Shown here: piece by piece, positions 7,426 to 60,507 of the stretch
How the letters are laid out: every line of letters begins with the position of its first letter
Numbering within the stretch: the first letter of the stretch is position 1
From: Bacteroidota bacterium
GTDB taxonomy: Bacteria > Bacteroidota > JABWAT01
Direction of reading: 5' to 3'
Assembly (NCBI GenBank): GCA_017303995.1
Contig: JAFLBE010000007.1
Coordinates: forward strand, 26,163-90,162
DNA: 64,000 bases
The notes under the pieces: generated by a model
The model's input: only the letters and a program-made list of their open reading frames with translations
What the model was told of the DNA's origin: nothing
Databases searched by the model: none
Position numbers and translations under genes: made by a program

Positions 7426-7962
7426 ATGTCAAACGGATTTACCATTTGGTTAACCGGACATAGCGGTGCAGGAAAATCAACGCTTGCCCATGCACTTGAA
7501 AAGGAATTGACGTCCCGTCATATTTCTACCGAAGTTTTGGATGGTGATATAGTGAGGACAAATTTGTCTCAGGGATTAACTTTTTCACCTGAGGACAGGA
7601 ACATCAATGTTCAGCGGATCGGATTTGTTGCTTCGTTGCTTTCAAAGCATGGTGTAGGTGTTATTGTTTCAGCAATTTCCCCTTACAGGACGGCCCGGGA
7701 AAGCGTCAGGAAGTCAATTCCGGGATTTGTTGAGGTTTATGTGAATTGCCCGGTTGAAGAATGTGAACGCCGTGACGTGAAAGGACTTTATAAAAAAGCT
7801 AGAAACGGTGAAATCCCATCTTTTACCGGAATTAACGATCCATATGAACCACCTTTAAATCCTGAAGTGGAAGTCAGAACCGACCTGGAATCCCTTCAGG
7901 AATCCACCAGAAAAATCATCTGCTTTCTGGAACAACAAAATTTAATCGGGGAAATCAAATGA
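7426..7962 (+). CDS. cysC: Adenylylsulfate (APS) kinase
   Basis: P-loop [17 protein letters not shown] motif, [12 protein letters not shown]. Confidence 0.9.
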
Positions 7963-8840
7963 ATCAGCTTGATCAGTTGGAAGCCAGAAGTGTTTACATT
8001 TTTCGTGAAGCTTATGCCAATTTCAAAAATTTGTGTATGCTTTGGTCCATCGGGAAAGACAGTACTGTTTTGTTGTGGCTGGCCAGAAAAGCCTTTTTTG
8101 GTCATGTTCCATTTCCTCTGGTTCACATCGACACACATTATAAAATCCCGGCCATGATTGAATACAGAAATAAACTTGCTCTGGAGTTTAATCTGAATTT
8201 GATTTATGGTGAGAATACCGAAGCGTTGGCGAATAAACTGACCTTTCCTGATGGCAATGTTGACCGGCTGACCTGCTGTAAAAACCTGAAAGCGGATGCT
8301 TTGAAAAACACACTTTCAGGTGATTGGCCACGCTACAAATTGAATCATTCCAATGGCGAATTTGATCTGGACACAAACAGGGAAGCCTACACAGGCGTTA
8401 TTGTAGGGGCCCGTGCAGATGAAGAAGGAAGCCGTTCAAAGGAACGTTATTTTTCACCAAGGAATAAAGAAAGTTCGTGGGATGTGGGTGACCAACCGCC
8501 TGAATTCTGGAATCAATATAAAACTGATTTTGCTCCCGGAACCCACGTCAGAATTCATCCGCTTTTAGATTGGACTGAACTGAATATCTGGGAATATATC
8601 GAGAGGGAAAAAATCCCGACGGTTGATTTGTACTACAATCAGGGCGAAGGAAAACGGTTTCGTTCTCTCGGTTGCTGGCCCTGTACACATTCTGTCGATT
8701 CTGAAAGCAGGAATGTTGTCGAAATTATTGAAGAATTGAAAACTGGTAAATTTGCTAACATTGCAGAAAGATCTGGTCGCGCTCAGGATAAAGAAGATGG
8801 TGGCGGACTCGAAACCCTCAGAAGAGAAGGATATATGTAG
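7959..8840 (+). CDS. cysD: Sulfate adenylyltransferase subunit 2
   Basis: PAPS-reductase-like ATP pyrophosphatase fold ([13 protein letters not shown]). It lies directly upstream of cysN. Confidence 0.9.
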
Positions 8841-8842
8841 GG

Positions 8843-8877
8843 GAATAACGAATAACGAATAGCGAATTACGAAACGA
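8843..8877. repeat. Heptanucleotide tandem-repeat array 1 (GAATAAC x2, GAATAGC, GAATTAC, GAAACGA) in the cysD-cysN spacer
   Basis: Exact period-7 phasing read directly. It is followed by AGTTCTGCGATGCC (8878-8891) and then a CCCCCTCC hairpin. Confidence 0.7.
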
Positions 8878-8929
8878 TAGTTCTGCGATGCCAATTCAGA
8901 ATAATGGAAAACACCATTTTCTGAAATAC

Positions 8930-8948
8930 CCCCCTCCAACGGAGGGGG
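8930..8948. repeat. GC hairpin CCCCCTCC-aac-GGAGGGGG, a member of the CCCCTCC hairpin family
   Basis: Perfect 8-bp inverted repeat. The same stem sequence recurs at 38546-38566, 41433-41455 and 41513-41533. Confidence 0.7.
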
Positions 8949-8997
8949 AATGGGGGTGGGTTGGTATGTTTACTCCTGAAAACACGAAAAAATAAAA

Positions 8998-10641
8998 GTG
9001 AAACTTATGCATTTACTCCGTACCCAAATGAATATCGTGATCTGTGGACATGTTGACCACGGGAAAAGCACTGTTGTTGGTCGGCTTTTAGCCGATACGA
9101 ACTCACTTCCGACCGGGAAACTTGATCAGGTCAGGGCAAATTGTGAACGAAATTCAAAACCGTTTGAATATGCCTTTCTTCTTGATGCCCTGAAAGATGA
9201 ACAATCACAGGGCATTACCATTGATGCTGCACGTGTTTTCTTCAAAACCCAATCCCGTGATTATATCATCATCGATGCACCCGGTCATATTGAATTTCTG
9301 AAAAATATGGTTACCGGTGCTTCACGTGCTGAAGCAGCTTTACTGGTTATTGATGCAAAAGAAGGCGTCAAAGAAAATTCGAAACGTCACGGATATTTGC
9401 TTTCCATGCTTGGCATTTCCCAAGTTGTCGTTCTAATTAATAAAATGGATTTGGTTGGATACTCAGAAGATATTTACAACTCCATTTCTTCAGAATATCG
9501 TGCTTTTCTGAGCCAGGTTGGTATAAATCCGGCGTCGATTATTCCGATTTCTGGCCGGGAAGGTGATAATCTGGTTTCGGTCAGTCAAAATATGCCCTGG
9601 TATTCTGGTACGTCGGTTTTAACCCAGCTTGATTCGTTTAAAAAGGAAAAACAACCGGTTGAAAGTCCGTTCCGGCTGCCTGTTCAGGATGTTTATAAGT
9701 TTACTGCAAATGGCGATGACCGGCGGATTGTGGCCGGAACGATTGAATCCGGCCGGATTCAGATTGGTGATGAAATCACATTTTATCCGTCAGGGAAGAC
9801 AGCAAAAATTGCAACAATTGAGAGTTTTAACACTGCCTTGAAATCAAAGTCAGAAGCTGGTGATGCAACTGGGTTTACACTTGATCAGCAGATTTACATC
9901 ACCCGTGGCGAACTGGTAGCAAAAGTAGGTGAGTTAAAACCGGTTTGTTCTTCTCTGATCAGGGTTAATTTGTTTTGGCTCGGAAGGAATCCGTTGGTGA
10001 AAGGGAAGGATTATTTTCTTAAAATCGGGACATCAAGAGTGAAAATGAAACTCGAAACTGTTCACAAACTTCTTGATGCCGTTAATCTGGAGACTTTGGA
10101 ATCAGCAACACAAATTAACCGTCACGATGTTGCAGATTGTACTTTCCGTCTTGCAAAACCTGTGGCATTTGATCTTACCTCTGATTTCGCAGGAACCTCC
10201 CGTTTTGTTATCGTTGATGATTATGAAATCAGTGGTGGCGGAATTATAAAAGAGGCCATTGACGACGCCAATCTTGCAGACAATAGCTGGAAAAAGAATT
10301 TACTCAAATGGGAAATAGTAAACGAAAACCGTGAGTTAAAAATCAGGTTTGATTCTGAAGCCGGCAATTTGATTTTAATTTCCGGTACAGATCATCAGGA
10401 TGCGATTAATCTGGCTGCTGAAAAAGAACGTGAACTCCTGCTTCTGGGAGAAAAGCCAATTGTGATTTCAATTTCTGATGATTTATCATTTGCCGATACC
10501 AGTATTTATCAGACTGATACAACCCGTGAACAACAAGTTCAGTTTTTATCAGGATTTCTTCCGGTTTTACTGAATAACGGGTCAACTATTATTATTTCAG
10601 CTACCCGGTTAACTGAAGATGAAACGAAATTATTAGTTTGA
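8998..10641 (+). CDS. cysN: Sulfate adenylyltransferase subunit 1 (GTPase) with an unusual ~115-aa C-terminal extension
   Basis: EF-Tu-like GTPase GHVDHGKST...DAPGH...NKMD. At 547 aa it is ~70 aa longer than canonical CysN. The tail (LILISGTDHQD...) lacks a P-loop. Confidence 0.9.
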   Translation: MKLMHLLRTQMNIVICGHVDHGKSTVVGRLLADTNSLPTGKLDQVRANCERNSKPFEYAFLLDALKDEQSQGITIDAARVFFKTQSRDYIIIDAPGHIEFLKNMVTGASRAEAALLVIDAKEGVKENSKRHGYLLSMLGISQVVVLINKMDLVGYSEDIYNSISSEYRAFLSQVGINPASIIPISGREGDNLVSVSQNMPWYSGTSVLTQLDSFKKEKQPVESPFRLPVQDVYKFTANGDDRRIVAGTIESGRIQIGDEITFYPSGKTAKIATIESFNTALKSKSEAGDATGFTLDQQIYITRGELVAKVGELKPVCSSLIRVNLFWLGRNPLVKGKDYFLKIGTSRVKMKLETVHKLLDAVNLETLESATQINRHDVADCTFRLAKPVAFDLTSDFAGTSRFVIVDDYEISGGGIIKEAIDDANLADNSWKKNLLKWEIVNENRELKIRFDSEAGNLILISGTDHQDAINLAAEKERELLLLGEKPIVISISDDLSFADTSIYQTDTTREQQVQFLSGFLPVLLNNGSTIIISATRLTEDETKLLV

Positions 10642-10659
10642 AAACTAATTAGTTAAGGT

Positions 10660-11238
10660 GTGAAAATGTCGCTGTATCCAGTTTTTTTTAAACTTGAAGG
10701 TCGATGCGTTTCCTTAATTGGCGGCGGAAAGCTGGCAGCTGAAAAACTCAGGGGGTTGAACGGTACCGGTGCCTCAATAAAAATCATTGCACCCGAATTG
10801 TCTGATGAAACCCGCTTTTGGATGGAAAAACTGAATTGCCGATGGATTGCCAGTCAGTTTGAGCCTTGTATGCTCACCGGAAGCTGTTTGGTTATTGCCG
10901 CAACCGATGATGAATTTGTTAACAATGAGGTCAGAGTTGCCGCCCAAAGCAGAGGGATTCCGGTAAACGTTGCAGACAGAAATGAGTTGTGTGACTGGTA
11001 TAACGGATCAGTCGTTTCACGTGGTGATTTTCTTCTGGCATTTTCTTCCAACGGAAAATCGCCGGCTTATCTGTCGTGGATGAGAGAACAATTGGATACT
11101 TTGATTCCATCTGATGAAGATGAATTTATTGCTGAACTTGGCGAAATCAGAGAAAAAATGAAAATATTTGGATTATCACCAGCACAACGTTCTGCCTGGT
11201 TCAGAGAGAAATTTACTGAACTGCAAAAGTCACTTTAA
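10660..11238 (+). CDS. sirC: Precorrin-2 dehydrogenase / sirohydrochlorin ferrochelatase (CysG N-terminal domain-like, SirC/Met8 family)
   Basis: Rossmann motif VSLIGGGKLAAEKL at the N-terminus. At 192 aa it fits the siroheme synthase N-domain. Confidence 0.8.
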   Translation: MKMSLYPVFFKLEGRCVSLIGGGKLAAEKLRGLNGTGASIKIIAPELSDETRFWMEKLNCRWIASQFEPCMLTGSCLVIAATDDEFVNNEVRVAAQSRGIPVNVADRNELCDWYNGSVVSRGDFLLAFSSNGKSPAYLSWMREQLDTLIPSDEDEFIAELGEIREKMKIFGLSPAQRSAWFREKFTELQKSL

Positions 11239-14674: not shown

Positions 14675-14696
14675 TTCAACAGACTTTTTAAGCAGC

Positions 14697-14727
14697 CACC
14701 CGGGTCAAATCCGGGTGGTAATTTTTT
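14697..14727 (+). terminator. Intrinsic terminator CCACCCGG-gtcaaat-CCGGGTGG followed by TAATTTTTT
   Basis: Perfect 8-bp GC-rich stem followed by a T-run, 20 nt after the stop of the 14282-14674 gene. Confidence 0.7.
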
Positions 14728-14750
14728 AAACCCACCATCAAAATCCTGTC

Positions 14751-14813
14751 TTCTGACTCCAGACTCCTGACTTCTGACTCCTGCAATCTTTCTTCTGTCA
14801 CCTGAATTCTGTA
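14751..14813. repeat. Heptanucleotide tandem-repeat array 3 (TTCTGAC TCCAGAC TCCTGAC TTCTGAC TCCTGCA ATCTTTC TTCTGTC ACCTGAA TTCTGTA) upstream of gatB
   Basis: Nine phased 7-mers read directly. Unit YYCTGAC shares the TGAC/GTCA core with arrays 4 and 6. Confidence 0.7.
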
Positions 14814-16332: not shown

Positions 16333-16372
16333 GATGTCATCCCCGTCCCGAAAGCTTTCGGGACGGGGATCC
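16333..16372. repeat. TGTCATCC-family nested palindrome (ATCCCCGTCCCGAAAGC/TTTCGGGACGGGGAT)
   Basis: Perfect 17-bp inverted repeat headed by GATGTCATCC. Related copies are at 33251, 42966/43031, 45291 and 58042. Confidence 0.7.
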
Positions 16373-17939: not shown

Positions 17940-18692
17940 ATGCCAAAAACCATTATTGCCGGTAACTGGAAAATGAACAAGAACCTGGCTGAATCCGTTC
18001 AGCTTGCTTCAGAAGTTGTTAAAGTTTCTGGTAAGGCAAGTGCAGGCGTTGAACTTGTCGTTTGTCCTGTTTTTACCCATCTCGAAGCAGTCAAAGAAGT
18101 GATCAAGGGAAGTGCTGTTAAGCTTGGTGCTCAAAATTGTTATCCTGCAGATTCAGGTGCTTTTACCGGTGAAGTTTCTGGCTCGATGCTCAAGGCAATT
18201 GGTGTTGAATATGTGATTTTAGGTCACTCTGAGCGTCGTCAGTATTTTCATGAAAGCAATGAATTTATCAATAAAAAAGTACATCATGTTCTTGCTCATG
18301 GTATGAAACCGATTTATTGTGTTGGCGAGTTGCTTGAAGAACGTGAAAAAGGCGTTACCCATCAGGTTGTAACTGAGCAGATCAATGCCGGTCTTGCTAA
18401 TGTGACTGCCGACCAAATGAAAAATGTGGTTATTGCATACGAACCGGTTTGGGCTATCGGTACCGGAAAAGTTGCTTCTCCTGAACAGGCAAACGAAGTT
18501 CACATCCTCATCAGAAATCTTCTGGTTAAGCTGGTTGGCGATGCAGGTAAGGAAGTTACCATTCAATATGGTGGTTCTATGAAACCTGACAATGCAAAAG
18601 AATTGCTTGCCCAATCAGAAATCAATGGTGGTTTGATCGGCGGCGCTGCATTAAAGGCTGACGATTTCCTTGCTATCGGTTCCGCAAAATAA
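17940..18692 (+). CDS. tpiA: Triosephosphate isomerase
   Basis: IAGNWKMN, AYEPVWAIGTG, GGSMKPDNA motifs. The start was moved from the track's 17862 to the M of MPKTIIAGNWKMN. Confidence 0.9.
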   Translation: MPKTIIAGNWKMNKNLAESVQLASEVVKVSGKASAGVELVVCPVFTHLEAVKEVIKGSAVKLGAQNCYPADSGAFTGEVSGSMLKAIGVEYVILGHSERRQYFHESNEFINKKVHHVLAHGMKPIYCVGELLEEREKGVTHQVVTEQINAGLANVTADQMKNVVIAYEPVWAIGTGKVASPEQANEVHILIRNLLVKLVGDAGKEVTIQYGGSMKPDNAKELLAQSEINGGLIGGAALKADDFLAIGSAK

Positions 18693-18702
18693 TTGATTTT
18701 TG

Positions 18703-18731
18703 GTAGAGACAAGGCAATGCCTTGTCTCTAC
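18703..18731 (+). terminator. Hairpin GTAGAGACAAGGCA-a-TGCCTTGTCTCTAC downstream of tpiA, followed by a partial direct repeat of its 3' arm
   Basis: Perfect 14-bp stem. The next 25 nt (ttatttcattgccttgtctctacgc) repeat the descending arm. Confidence 0.55.
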
Positions 18732-18883
18732 TTATTTCATTGCCTTGTCTCTACGCTTCAAAATCCACAGCCTCCTTGATTCAATCCCGTTTTCCTGCTA
18801 CCTTTTCAACTTAATTCCGGAAACTCCGGAATCCTTTTAAACCATGAATCCGGTTTAACTGTCCTTAAACCGGACGGACAGGT

Positions 18884-33209: not shown

Positions 33210-33250
33210 TCCACTTGAGTTAAATTCCCAACAGGTTGCATTTCCACACT

Positions 33251-33299
33251 GTCATCCCCGTGAAGACGGGATAATGAAGTTCTGCGAAGCCATCCCGTA
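33251..33299. repeat. TGTCATCC-family element: GTCATCCCCGTGAAGACGGGAT plus an AAGTTCTGCGAAGCC module inside an ACGGGAT/ATCCCGT hairpin
   Basis: Read directly. The AAGTTCTGCGAAGC module is also at 58068-58082 and, as AGTTCTGCGATGCC, at 8878-8891. Confidence 0.65.
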
Positions 33300-34292: not shown

Positions 34293-34574
34293 GATTTAAA
34301 CCAGACAACTAATAAAATAAATGGCAAAGTTAATTAAAACAGACGACTTTTCACTGTGAACATGCGGGATGGAGATCTGATTCCCTATTTTTTCAAATTG
34401 AATTTAAATGCAGTTAAATTTTGTATTTTGGTCAAATGTCAAAACTTTACTTTTTAAAGTTTCAAAAATCAGAATAATAATTTGTGATAATGGATAAATG
34501 ACAAATATAATATTGTGTTATGATCCAAATCGACGAAAAGAAGGGATTAAAACTGAGAAAAAACGGAGATGTTT

Positions 34575-34603
34575 GTTGACATGCTGAGAATCCTTTCTTA
34601 TTA
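34575..34603 (+). promoter_or_regulatory. Sigma-70-like promoter TTGACA-N17-TATTAT(TG) for the ilv-leu leader
   Basis: ttgaca at 34575-80, 17-nt spacer, tattat at 34598-603. Same TATTATTG extended -10 as the cys promoter at 76-104. Confidence 0.45.
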
Positions 34604-34655
34604 TTGCCTAAGCAATTAAGAAAAACACGACAACAACTTTACTTTCTTAAACAAT

Positions 34656-34799
34656 ATGAACCATATGCAAACATACTCTTCCGCAATACCGGTCGACTCC
34701 GCATATGGAAATTCATTGCCCTATTTTATCAACCTACCGAACCTTCTGCTTCTTGTGGGCCTTACTATTCTACTTCTTGGTATTATTACCCTGAAATAA
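34656..34799 (+). promoter_or_regulatory. Candidate branched-chain-amino-acid leader peptide (47 aa: MNHMQTYSSAIPVDSAYGNSLPYFINLPNLLLLVGLTILLLGIITLK) upstream of ilvB
   Basis: My own translation; the ORF is below the track's size cut-off. 15 of the last 18 codons are Leu/Ile/Val. It starts ~50 nt after the promoter, and a ggtcagcct...aggctgacc hairpin (34809-34855) follows. Confidence 0.4.
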
Positions 34800-35128
34800 G
34801 AACATAGTGGTCAGCCTGCATAACCCGATTTAACAACAAAACAAAAAGGCTGACCAGCCTGAAGAACCAGCCGGAACGGCAGACCCAGATTTCATTTTTG
34901 AACTGAGGTTTTTATGTTTGACTGGATGTTTGTTTCACCTGATTCCTGCAAACGAATGCAGAATGAAGATTTGTTTTGCCCCGCCCGGCATTCCAGATCT
35001 GCCTGCTATTCTTCCCCAAGTATTTCTGCATTAAACATCCCGGTTCAGACTTCAGCCACACTTCCCGATTTTATTTTTCAATTATCAAATAGCCTGTTAA
35101 GCAGCGTAAATAATCAACGGAGTCAAGT

Positions 35129-38456: not shown

Positions 38457-38462
38457 TAACCA

Positions 38463-38634
38463 GTGACAAGTTACAAGTGACAAGTTACAAGTGGTAAGTT
38501 ATAAGTGACAAATTACAGGTTACGGGTGACACGAGAATAAAAACTCCCCTCCTTTTTAAGGAGGGGAAATCAGTCGTAAGACTGATGGGGTGGTTCGGTC
38601 TTTGGCCCACGTCCCATGTCCCCTGTCACTTGTC
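38463..38634. repeat. 172-bp composite intergenic element: left heptamer array 4 (10 units), CCCCTCC hairpin, right inverted heptamer array (MITE-like terminal inverted arrays)
   Basis: Left array GTGACAA GTTACAA ... GTGACAC (38463-38532). Hairpin CCCCTCCTT-ttt-AAGGAGGGG (38546-66). Right array GTCCCAT GTCCCCT GTCACTT GTCACCA (38607-34) is in inverse orientation. Confidence 0.65.
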
Positions 38635-38662
38635 ACCAGCATTTTAAAAGAAAGCAAGTTCA

Positions 38663-41387: not shown

Positions 41388-41533
41388 GGTTACGGGTCAC
41401 AGATAACGGGTCACAGGTTAATGTGTGAAATTCCCCTCCTTTTATAAAGGAGGGGTGGCGAAGCCGGGGTGGTTTTGTTTTGGGTTTAGATAATAACTAA
41501 ACCTCCCCTAGCCCCTCCTTTGAAAAAGGAGGG
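41388..41533. repeat. Composite intergenic element: heptamer array 5 (GGTTACG GGTCACA GATAACG GGTCACA GGTTAAT GTGTGAA) plus two CCCCTCC hairpins
   Basis: Array 41388-41429. Hairpins CCCCTCCTTTTA-taa-AGGAGGGG (41433-55) and CCCTCCTTT-gaaa-AAGGAGGG (41513-33). It lies in the 250-bp leuA-leuC spacer. Confidence 0.65.
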
Positions 41534-41637
41534 AAATCTTCTCCAAAAAGCTAACAGCCAATAGCTAATAGATTTCATTTTACACCTTAACCCTTATGCC
41601 TTAACCCTATTTATATAACAAAAGGAAAGCTTCTCAA

Positions 41638-42965: not shown

Positions 42966-43060
42966 GATGTCATCCCGGACTTAGCCTGCCCCGAACGCTT
43001 TCGGGGATTCGGGATCCAGTTTTTTTAACAATGGATCCTGACTTTCGTCAGGATGACACA
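42966..43060. repeat. Head-to-head pair of TGTCATCC-family palindromes in the leuC-leuD spacer
   Basis: P1 is GTCATCCCGGAC...CCCCGAAcgctTTCGGGG...CGGGAT (42966-43017). P2 is ATCCTGACtttcGTCAGGATGACAC (43031-43060), whose reverse complement starts TGTCATCCTGAC. They flank a T7 run. Confidence 0.65.
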
Positions 43061-45290: not shown

Positions 45291-45319
45291 TGTCATTCCG
45301 GCTCCGGCCGGAATTGACG
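45291..45319. repeat. TGTCATTCC-family palindrome (TGTCATTCCGGCTCCGGCCGGAATTGACG) between cimA and thrA
   Basis: ATTCCGGC...GCCGGAAT inverted repeat read directly; the next run is ttttaaaaa. Confidence 0.6.
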
Positions 45320-58041: not shown

Positions 58042-58082
58042 TGTCATTCCCGCGAAGGCGGGTTAACAAAGTTCTGCGAAGC
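58042..58082. repeat. TGTCATTCC-family element (TGTCATTCCCGCGAAGGCGGG plus the AAGTTCTGCGAAGC module)
   Basis: Read directly; it matches 33251-33290 in both modules. Confidence 0.65.
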
Positions 58083-59482: not shown

Positions 59483-59517
59483 GTATCACTTGCCACTTGT
59501 CACTTACCACTTATTTT
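59483..59517. repeat. Heptanucleotide tandem-repeat array 6 (GTATCAC TTGCCAC TTGTCAC TTACCAC TTATTTT) in the dusB 5' region
   Basis: Period-7 phasing. TTGTCAC is the reverse complement of the GTGACAA unit of array 4. Confidence 0.65.
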
Positions 59518-59532
59518 CCCTACCTTTGCAAC

Positions 59533-60507
59533 ATGTTAAAAATTGGCGATAAAATACAAATACAAAATGCTGTTGTTCTTGCTCCGATGGAGGAAGTGAC
59601 AGATTTACCATTCCGCAAAATTTGCAAAGAGAATGGTGCAGACATCGTTTACACTGAATTCATTCCTTCTGAAGCCATTATCCGGAATGCAGCAAAATCT
59701 CTGCGAAAAATGGAAATTGCAGACGAAGAACGTCCTGTTTCTATTCAGATTTATGGAAATCAGACTGAAGTGATGGTCAAGGCTGCAAAGCTTGCTGAAG
59801 CCTTAAATCCCGATTTTCTTGATATCAATTACGGTTGCCCGGCCAAAAAAATTGCAGGGCGTGGAGCAGGAAGTGGTCTGCTATGTTATCCTGATCTGAT
59901 GGAAACCATAACAAGAGAAATTGTTAATGCCTTATCAATCCCAGTAACTGCCAAAACCCGGATTGGTTGGGATTCCGACTCTATTTCAATAATTGAAACT
60001 ACAAAACGACTTGAACAGCAGGGAATTAAAGCACTAACCATCCACGGCAGGACGAAAGCTCAAATGTTTGAAGGAACTGCCGATTGGGATTGGATTGGAA
60101 AGGCAAAGGCCTCTGCCGGTATTCCAATAATTGGAAATGGTGATATTACAACTCCTGAATTTGCTCTGGAAGTTTTCAACCGGTCTGGGGTCGATGGTGT
60201 TATGATTGGACGTGGGTCTTACGGAAACCCGTGGATTTTCAGCCGCACAAAGCACTTGTTAAATACGGGGATTTTGCTACCAGAACCAGAAATTGAAGAG
60301 AAAGTTGAAGTGATGCTCAGGCATCTCAGATATTCAATGGCATGTAAAGGTCAGCACGGATTGGTATCCTTCAGAAAACACTATCCCAATTATCTGAAGG
60401 GATTTGAAAATGCAGCAAAACTCAGAAGTCAGCTTGTTCTGATTAATACTTACGAGCAGATTGCTGAAACGGTAATGAATTTTCTCGGGATTAAATGCGT
60501 AGCCTGA
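59533..60507 (+). CDS. dusB: tRNA-dihydrouridine synthase
   Basis: FMN TIM-barrel motifs LAPMEEVTDLPFR, INYGCPAKK, TIHGRT. The start was moved to MLKIGDK. Confidence 0.85.
   Translation: MLKIGDKIQIQNAVVLAPMEEVTDLPFRKICKENGADIVYTEFIPSEAIIRNAAKSLRKMEIADEERPVSIQIYGNQTEVMVKAAKLAEALNPDFLDINYGCPAKKIAGRGAGSGLLCYPDLMETITREIVNALSIPVTAKTRIGWDSDSISIIETTKRLEQQGIKALTIHGRTKAQMFEGTADWDWIGKAKASAGIPIIGNGDITTPEFALEVFNRSGVDGVMIGRGSYGNPWIFSRTKHLLNTGILLPEPEIEEKVEVMLRHLRYSMACKGQHGLVSFRKHYPNYLKGFENAAKLRSQLVLINTYEQIAETVMNFLGIKCVA

Follow-up and report, generated by a model that had tools for sequence, protein, structure and literature searches.

The spacer between cysD and cysN was analysed in 64 kb of one metagenome-assembled genome (MAG) of a Bacteroidota bacterium (assembly GCA_017303995.1, contig JAFLBE010000007.1); this whole stretch is called the window, and all window-wide counts refer to it. 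The spacer lies within a long sulfate-assimilation operon, is 157 bp in length (8841-8997) and holds an array of degenerate heptamers followed by two hairpins. The genes and features at the locus, with window coordinates and strand, are as follows.

7959-8840, plus strand: cysD, sulfate adenylyltransferase subunit 2 (NCBIfam NF003587, E=3e-102)
8843-8877, plus strand: heptamer array GAATAAC (twice), GAATAGC, GAATTAC, GAAACGA; solo left arm of the CGAAT type
8868-8892, plus strand: inner end of the arm, ACGAAACGATAGTTCTGCGATGCC, with the module at 8879-8892 and GCGATGC, a degenerate version of the mini-hairpin motif GCGAAGC
8895-8925, plus strand: imperfect hairpin TTCAGAAtAATGG-aaaaca-CCATTtTCTGAA, peculiar to the window allele
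8930-8948, plus strand: perfect hairpin CCCCCTCC-AAC-GGAGGGGG with an 8-bp stem, a member of a dispersed CCCCTCC unit
8952-8964, plus strand: G-rich tail GGGGGTGGGTTGG, companion of the CCCCTCC hairpin; other copies have GGGGTGGTT
9007-10641, plus strand: cysN (NCBIfam), from the ATG at 9007, which is the start called in relatives; the listing of open reading frames (ORFs) begins at GTG 8998

The TAG stop of cysD is followed by GG and then by the first heptamer, a separation of 2 nt. Four units of the 8843-8877 array are good and one is degenerate (Tandem Repeats Finder: period 7, 4.4 copies, 87% matches), and a T separates the array from the module AGTTCTGCGATGCC at 8879-8892. From the tail at 8964 to the start of cysN the spacer is filled by an A-rich run. 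A sequence-only reading of this DNA had described five phased heptamers at 8843, the module and the perfect hairpin, and all of these are present and above chance; the imperfect hairpin is an addition to it. Runs of period 7 number four in the window against 0.02 expected from Markov simulations, with almost none of any other period, and CCCTCC-N3-12-GGAGGG has four matches against 0.00 in 100 shuffles. The module is matched at 8879, at 33278 (exact) and at 58070 (one mismatch), with 0.46 matches expected at up to two mismatches. Copies had been reported at 33277 and 58068; both exist, and their coordinates were off by 1-2 bases.

Compared with shuffled sequence, the cysD-cysN spacer has a more stable fold (z = -3.1). 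On the coding strand the hairpins are not followed by a U-tract, and a terminator scan of 8700-9100 gave no site; a promoter scan at the hairpins gave nothing on the coding strand, and Rfam at gathering thresholds gave 0 matches in the whole window, rRNA included. A search of the window and of 1.5 Mb of loci gave no second copy of the hairpin at 8895-8925. The window copy is one-armed and so cannot form a long stem; its two hairpins make a fold of moderate stability and, lacking a U-tract, would be at most barriers to decay.

The layout of heptamers, CCCCTCC hairpin and GGGGTGGTT is found again in two spacers identified by Pfam gene calls, ilvC|leuB (38457-38662) and leuA|leuC (41388-41637). 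The two-part layout noted earlier at 38463 and 41388 recurs there over 38462-38595 and 41388-41474, and NCBIfam and Pfam bear out that all three composite copies lie in intra-operon spacers. The features of these two spacers are as follows.

38462-38532, plus strand: left arm of ilvC|leuB, ~10 units of GTGACAA/GTTACAA type, the first 5 nt downstream of the ilvC stop; relatives differ in the number and sequence of the units
38546-38595, plus strand: core of ilvC|leuB, CCCCTCC-TTTTTAA-GGAGGGG, then a TCAGTC-GTAA-GACTGA hairpin, then GGGGTGGTT
38606-38639, plus strand: right arm of ilvC|leuB, inverted heptamers (...TGTCCCCTGTCACTTGTCAC), 20 nt of which are complementary to the left arm at 85%
41388-41422, plus strand: left arm of leuA|leuC, GGTTACG GGTCACA GATAACG GGTCACA GGTTAAT, directly after the leuA stop
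41433-41474, plus strand: core of leuA|leuC, CCCCTCC-TTTTATAAA-GGAGGGG, then the mini-hairpin GGCGAAGCC, then GGGGTGGTT
41512-41533, plus strand: second CCCCTCC-type hairpin of leuA|leuC, the 3' half of which is a 14-nt insertion relative to close relatives
41550-41607, plus strand: short right-hand arrays of leuA|leuC, GCTAACA GCCAATA GCTAATA G and CCTTAACCCTTATGCCTTAACCC

The three window arms start 0-5 nt past the upstream stop codon, and arms stop just before the downstream start region. In the predicted fold of leuA|leuC, TTAACC of the right-hand arrays pairs with GGTTAA of the left arm. Both spacers fold more stably than shuffled sequence (z = -4.7 for ilvC|leuB and -4.4 for leuA|leuC). 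The only terminator match at 38546 is on the minus strand, with none on the coding strand.

Junction alleles in close relatives

The window was compared with relatives' contigs in which CysD is 95-99% identical in protein and cysD and cysN are 91-95% identical in DNA. At the three composite sites, spacer identity between the window and relatives with flanking genes 91-95% identical is 21%, 63-66% and 75%. In L001-L004 (CysD 98% identical in protein and 93% in DNA; the set includes the species-representative MAG BAC1, GCA_020161835.1) the cysD|cysN spacer is ~680 bp long, and its two inverted arms enclose a gene of 127 aa. The gene product matches PF05635 ("23S rRNA-intervening sequence protein", 6e-20) and TIGR02436 ("four helix bundle protein", 2e-21), and the closest solved structure is XCC0516 (PDB 2GSC). 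The arm upstream of the gene reads AATTACG AATAGCG AATGGCG AATTGCG AATAACG ACACGATAGTTCGGC..., and the downstream arm, in reverse complement, reads ...GCTTCGCAGAACTATCGTTTCG ... CGTCATA CGTCATT CGTCATT CGTAATT and stops before the cysN ribosome-binding region; relatives and window match again from AAAGTGAAACTTATG at the cysN side. The L002 arms comprise inverted repeats of 54 nt and 34 nt, which pair in both the minimum-free-energy and the centroid RNA folds with the ORF enclosed (z = -4.25).

Each arm of the cassette consists of a heptamer array and ACGATAGTTC(TGCGAA)GC, which makes the module of the sequence-only reading the inner end of an arm. Window ACGAAACGATAGTTCTGCGATGCC is one base away from CGAAACGATAGTTCTGCGAAGC, a sequence that L001-L004 have in the right arm, on the minus strand, and L008 has in the left arm. 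The module in L001-L004 is on the opposite strand and the opposite side of the gene relative to the window, and in the L008 allele it is inside the left arm. The L006 and L007 alleles have GAATGAC/GAATTGC heptamers and then different sequence leading into a TGTCATC element, and the L005 allele is distinct from all others. Five alleles of this junction are present among close relatives, and that of the window alone has the CCCCCTCC hairpin and alone is without a right arm. The arm type of its solo array also flanks a four-helix-bundle gene in L002, L008, L097, L099, L100 and L188.

Many of the relatives' short-read contigs (L005-L007, L010-L016) end in heptamer arrays right after cysD; the heptamer elements fragment assemblies.

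Variation of a similar kind is seen at the other two composite spacers. Relatives whose LeuB protein is 100% identical keep heptamer arms on both sides of the ilvC|leuB core, with different unit numbers and sequences, and the core itself is of the CCCCTCC type in the window, L186 and L187 and consists of two TGTCATYCC palindromes in L182-L185. At leuA|leuC the CCCCTCC core is common to the window and its relatives, the left arm in relatives is made of GTGACAA/GTTATAA units, and L186 has five extra heptamers. None of the relatives examined has a PF05635 gene at ilvC|leuB or leuA|leuC. As cores are swapped between arms that are kept, the heptamer arrays delimit or host small cores that can be exchanged, with TGTCATYCC palindromes, the CCCCTCC unit or the four-helix-bundle gene as alternative contents. 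The earlier proposal of one modular repeat family is upheld to the extent that the pieces are modular and recombined: the CCCCTCC...GGAGGGG...GGGGTGG core is common to three spacers, and TGTCATYCC replaces it in relatives at ilvC|leuB. The regulatory role attached to that proposal finds no support, as set out below.

Hairpins of the form CCCTCC-loop-GGAGGG with a GGG(T/A)GG tail were also seen in distant lineages, including a Kryptoniota MAG (L059:9963-10200 and L133:5111-5260), and judging by these copies the hairpin unit may have spread far beyond the window genome.

PF05635 genes and gene-less arrays in other organisms

Species-representative genomes were scanned with the family alignment, which gave 80 loci, and 91 PF05635 genes were analysed in all. 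The sampled lineages were Bacteroidota, Ignavibacteria, Anaerolineae, Nitrospirota, Omnitrophota, Patescibacteria, Verrucomicrobiota, Desulfobacterota and others. Inverted complementarity between the 150 nt on each side of a gene was scored by local alignment, using the 95th percentile of 114 control genes as the cut-off. The flanks were inverted complements above this cut-off for 77 of the 91 PF05635 genes (median score 38 vs 18; Mann-Whitney p = 5e-25), and 80 of the 91 had at least one of the three flank features. Period 7 was the most frequent flank repeat period, followed by 8 and then 9. Both neighbours were co-directional for 67 of 82 PF05635 genes (82%), with median gaps of 88 and 71 nt. 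The two arms of one cassette match each other, and arms of different cassettes differ.

The cysD|cysN junction is occupied in other organisms too. L009, with a CysD 81% identical, has a PF05635 gene there between (CTGGCTA)n arrays and inverted (GCCAGNN)n arrays, and its four-helix-bundle protein is only 29% identical to that of L002 despite the same junction. Homologs of the L002 protein (56-61% identity) are found in cysD|cysN of an organism with CysD 28% and CysN 34% identical to those of the window. From these comparisons the junction is judged to be occupied independently three times, L009 included. The distant organism is that of L097 (3824-4490) and L098 (1-545), whose four-helix-bundle gene in cysD|cysN is 61% identical to the one of the relatives. 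In L009 a heptamer array was also observed to be swallowed by the called start of cysN.

Further homologs of the L002 protein lie between a ccsA-like (cytochrome-c-assembly) gene and hemA, at three places in one polysaccharide operon, and at the junction of a radical-SAM gene with a DUF1207 gene. At the cysD|cysN, ccsA-like|hemA, polysaccharide and radical-SAM loci, all homologs of the L002 protein have inverted arms of CGAATT-type 7-8-mers, the type of the window solo arm. Related genes thus stand amid unrelated host genes with the same arm type, so the similarity of the four-helix-bundle genes is decoupled from that of the host genes, and the arm type goes with the gene. L068, an unrelated organism of higher GC content, has a PF05635 gene in ilvB|ilvN with inverted CGTAACT arms. 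On L099 (1654-5990) three PF05635 genes were seen to alternate with sugar-modifying enzymes in one polysaccharide operon, each with inverted arms of its own and the arm sequences unlike one another.

Arrays with no gene between them were counted in a background sample that is unbiased for PF05635, comprising 835 kb around leuA from ~80 organisms among the LeuA matches listed (all <=70% identity). Among those matches there are 42 arrays of period 7-9, about half of them with an inverted partner within 600 nt, and one PF05635 gene by the family hidden Markov model (HMM). Inverted heptamer elements without a gene thus form the larger class: PF05635 genes are almost always in an armed frame, and most frames hold no gene. 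One ilvB|ilvN junction holds a gene-less (TTAGTTG)n ... (CAACTAA)n pair, and another organism has a PF05635 gene at ilvB|ilvN. A heptamer-armed element with a CCTGAC-tgcc-GTCAGG core is found at two junctions of one contig. In unrelated bacteria, one and the same gene-less element (heptamer arm, small hairpin core and inverted arm) was observed at two operon junctions per contig, as listed here, which suggests that gene-less elements multiply within a genome.

L064, 760-990 and 12230-12450: duplicated gene-less element
L048, 10566-10651 and 12576-12708: duplicated gene-less element

Origin of the window element and its alternatives

From the comparisons of alleles we consider it probable that cysD|cysN is a hypervariable intercistronic slot bounded by degenerate 7-nt repeat arrays and that the 157-bp spacer is one of its alleles, without the gene. 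The window element is best classed as a derivative, with one arm and no gene, of a heptamer-armed cassette slot that resembles an intervening sequence, and is most likely a selfish or neutral passenger and not a regulator. Inverted arms are present at 38462/38606 and in relatives, and copies of the element vary greatly in length and core.

The data establish the anatomy of the elements, the series of alleles in relatives, the general link of PF05635 genes to inverted arms of short tandem repeats and to the interior of operons, and the discordance between these genes and their host genes. In the mechanism that we propose, passengers and their arms would spread together and be transcribed as part of the host operon. 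The arms would pair into a long stem and loop the cargo out of the polycistronic transcript, after which RNase III might remove the cargo as in rRNA, or the stop and start codons might be brought together; either would limit harm to the host operon. Juxtaposition of the upstream stop with the downstream start would limit polarity between subunit genes such as cysD/cysN and ilvB/ilvN. Looping-out or processing of the cassette RNA is inferred, and the arms, which begin 0-5 nt after a stop and end before a start region, are consistent with it. In decayed copies small hairpins would limit the harm in place of the arm stem. The window copy would have lost its gene and right arm or had them replaced; it keeps the left arm, with two small hairpins as cargo. 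One of these is the dispersed CCCCTCC...GGAGGGG...GGGGTGG unit, which is also the cargo of the two complete gene-less slots, ilvC|leuB and leuA|leuC.

Several results weigh against this reading. No inverted partner of the 8843 array was found within 7900-10700 (2.8 kb) and no PF05635 ORF in the window by tblastn and the family HMM, so that the window copy is tied to the gene cassette solely by where it lies and by the sequence of its arm. Among the transition mismatches of the arms, sense-strand wobble is not in excess (150 of G.U type and 149 of A.C type), a result that lends no positive support to RNA-level selection for pairing; arm symmetry may instead be preserved in the DNA, for instance through template switching in quasi-palindromes, and may have no function as RNA. 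The single PF05635 gene of the leuA sample is a further difficulty, since the array may be the basic element, which a gene occupies only now and then. No target-site duplication, empty site or linked transposase or recombinase was identified, no genome-wide transposase search having been made. Finally, the window comes from a MAG, and short-read assemblies often break in these arrays.

The fact that arrays vastly outnumber PF05635 genes in that sample also suits another explanation, in which unrelated mobile or slippage-prone repeats, namely hairpins resembling repetitive extragenic palindromic (REP) sequences or miniature inverted-repeat transposable elements together with simple heptamers, gather in permissive spacers and the four-helix-bundle gene is a coincidental neighbour. 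It would account for the TGTCATYCC palindromes that occur without heptamers at 16335, 42968 and 45291, for cores that swap independently of the arms and for a heptamer copy number that varies as if by slippage. However, the flanks of 77 of 91 PF05635 genes are inverted complements, whereas the share among controls is 5% by construction; the CGAATT arm type tracks the protein subfamily across hosts with unrelated flanking genes, and paired arms are alike within a cassette and unlike between cassettes. We therefore regard coincidence as unlikely.

A second alternative is the one put forward in the sequence-only reading, that the composite is a cis-regulatory RNA module for differential mRNA stability or uncoupled expression of CysD and CysN, selected in biosynthetic operons. 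GC-rich intercistronic hairpins can be 3' stabilisers, as is established for REP elements; all copies here lie between co-transcribed genes, and all three spacers are more stable than shuffled sequence. The content of the spacers is nevertheless not conserved, with five alleles at cysD|cysN and a swapped core at ilvC|leuB where flanking genes are 91-95% identical, and elements of like kind are found in unrelated operons and phyla. That close relatives manage with wholly different spacers argues against a role selected for cysDN. There is also no Rfam match and no U-tract on the coding strand, and the only stem change seen among homologous copies, a G to A in L183-L185 at leuA|leuC, is uncompensated. 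A tuned role in mRNA stability or cysDN stoichiometry thus finds no backing here, and a selected regulatory module is improbable.

It is very improbable that the 157-bp spacer is a misassembly in which the assembler jumped between repeat copies and dropped a gene: many short-read contigs do end inside arrays and the exact allele was seen only in the window, but both junctions are continuous with cysD and cysN so that two independent jumps would be required, the hairpin at 8895-8925 is unique and offers no copy to jump to, and the window-type ilvC|leuB core was found independently in two samples, L186 and L187.

If the gene-less-allele reading of the spacer is extended, PF05635 genes and their inverted arms of 7-9-nt repeats might form a widespread class of promoterless, self-looping cassettes at operon junctions in many bacterial phyla, of which the ORF-bearing 23S rRNA intervening sequences would be the special case and the far more numerous gene-less elements, with the three of the window among them, the decayed or non-autonomous members; the pentameric protein may recognise the units of the arms (~4-6 per arm). 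This generalisation is offered tentatively, as a possibility that we think somewhat doubtful. No description of heptamer- or repeat-armed PF05635 cassettes outside rRNA, in protein-coding operons, was found in a literature coverage that is incomplete.

The nearest known systems are the 23S rRNA intervening sequences with an ORF (Leptospira, Coxiella, Xanthomonas), which resemble the relatives' cassette in their PF05635 cargo and inverted-repeat stem, and of which ORF-less versions exist. They lie in rRNA helices, whereas the elements described here are in intercistronic spacers of protein-coding operons, the 8843 element itself being between cysD and cysN and not inside a 23S or 16S rRNA helix. 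In contrast to them, the window allele has neither an ORF nor a second arm, the stem being present in relatives and at 38462/38606. In Coxiella burnetii the 23S intervening sequence has 3-4 tandem GACAGAT heptamers, in a strain-dependent number, before the S23p (PF05635) ORF, and it forms a long stem with an RNase III cut at the first repeat (PMC4990558). The PF05635 family has also been noted in insertions of the rRNA genes of the candidate phyla radiation (PMC11270868). Members located between cmr3 and cmr2, or elsewhere in cas loci, were interpreted as functionally associated with them (PMC3936711).

Other repeat systems share single traits with the slot. Integron gene cassettes are likewise promoterless, co-directional with host transcription and bounded by imperfect, hairpin-capable inverted repeats; unlike them, the cassettes here have no integrase, attI or cassette array, sit singly in housekeeping operons and have arms of tandem repeats instead of attC. 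REP sequences and bacterial interspersed mosaic elements of enterobacteria, the neisserial intergenic mosaic elements and dRS3 of Neisseria, and the small dispersed repeats of Nostoc, reportedly described by Elhai et al. in 2008 (cited in PMC3116915), also consist of hairpin units that are variably ordered, nested, strain-variable, intergenic and often intra-operon. The bounding units here differ from these in being tandem heptamer arrays and not single palindromes, and in having an optional protein-coding cargo. The short tandemly repeated repetitive (STRR) heptamers of cyanobacteria, said to have been described by Mazel et al. in 1990, are similarly degenerate tandem heptamers in non-coding DNA, with several families per genome and strain-variable copy number, in another phylum. 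To our knowledge STRR sequences have not been described as inverted arms around a cargo or as a habitat of PF05635 genes. The Avd protein of diversity-generating retroelements is homologous, and the L009 and L068 proteins gave weak bAvd/DivGenRetAVD matches; no reverse transcriptase or template/variable repeat pair was found near any cassette locus examined.

The repeat cluster would in this way be explained as one allele of a recurrent cassette slot and not as a bespoke regulator. Three subjects that are as a rule treated apart would be connected: tandem heptamers, small hairpin repeats between genes, and the enigmatic protein family of 23S rRNA intervening sequences. The elements also flag a systematic source of contig breaks and mis-called gene starts in metagenome assemblies. 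Should the general pattern be true, the origin and spread of rRNA intervening sequences, a question since 1993, could be tested in ordinary operons, and PF05635 genes in CRISPR-Cas or biosynthetic operons (PMC3936711) would be passengers and not functional partners.

Other repeats in the window

Heptamers of the families GAATNAC, GTGACAA/GTTACAA, GGTNACN, CTGACTC and CACTTNC are present in the window, which places them with repeats of the STRR type. The same 64 kb holds four CCCCTCC units and five TGTCATYCC palindromes. The module, AGTTCTGCGAWGC, is present both in heptamer arms and beside TGTCATYCC palindromes, and is specific to the lineage: besides the three copies in the window it is found in L001, L002 and L008, with one match, at chance level, in 1.3 Mb of other organisms. 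Further repeat sites are as follows.

14746-14783, plus strand: direct heptamer array of the CTGACTC type upstream of gatB
33250-33290, plus strand: palindrome TGTCATCCCCGTGAAGACGGGAT, then the module AGTTCTGCGAAGC
58042-58082, plus strand: palindrome TGTCATTCCCGCGAAGGCGGG, then the module AGTTCTGCGAAGC
59487-59512, no strand assigned: solo array CACTTGC/CACTTGT/CACTTAC, of the AAGTGNC type when read in reverse complement; a probable ATG lies downstream of it, near 59533
8885-8891, 33258-33269, 33284-33290, 41457-41465 and 58052-58061: GAA-loop mini-hairpins

Three-frame stop codons were considered as the cause of the period of 7 and dropped, several arrays having none. A G-quadruplex in the G-rich tail and mimicry of the anti-Shine-Dalgarno sequence by CCUCC/GGAGG were likewise considered and dropped.

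The 34293-35128 interval upstream of ilvB is a gene-poor 836 bp in which no Rfam leader or riboswitch was detected; relatives have a called 72-aa gene directly upstream of ilvB. Two neighbouring copies related to the palindrome GAGACAAGGCAATGCCTTGTCTCTAC are located at 18693-18760, in the spacer after a gene ending at 18692. Solitary TGTCATYCC...GGRATCC palindromes, without heptamers or module, are found at 16335-16372, 42968-43017 and 45291-45319, the 42968 copy being followed by a T-run.

The GAA-loop mini-hairpins GCGAAGC, GGCGAAGCC, CGCGAAGGCG and CGTGAAGACG recur in the module, the CCCCTCC unit and the TGTCATYCC palindromes; d(GCGAAGC) is a DNA mini-hairpin of unusual stability. The array upstream of gatB is uninterrupted in the window, and in relatives it holds a 70-nt insertion that consists of a small hairpin and more heptamers. 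Just upstream of this array, at 14696-14730, a terminator-like hairpin CCACCCGG-GTCAAAT-CCGGGTGG followed by TAATTTTTT was observed, and it is kept in relatives.

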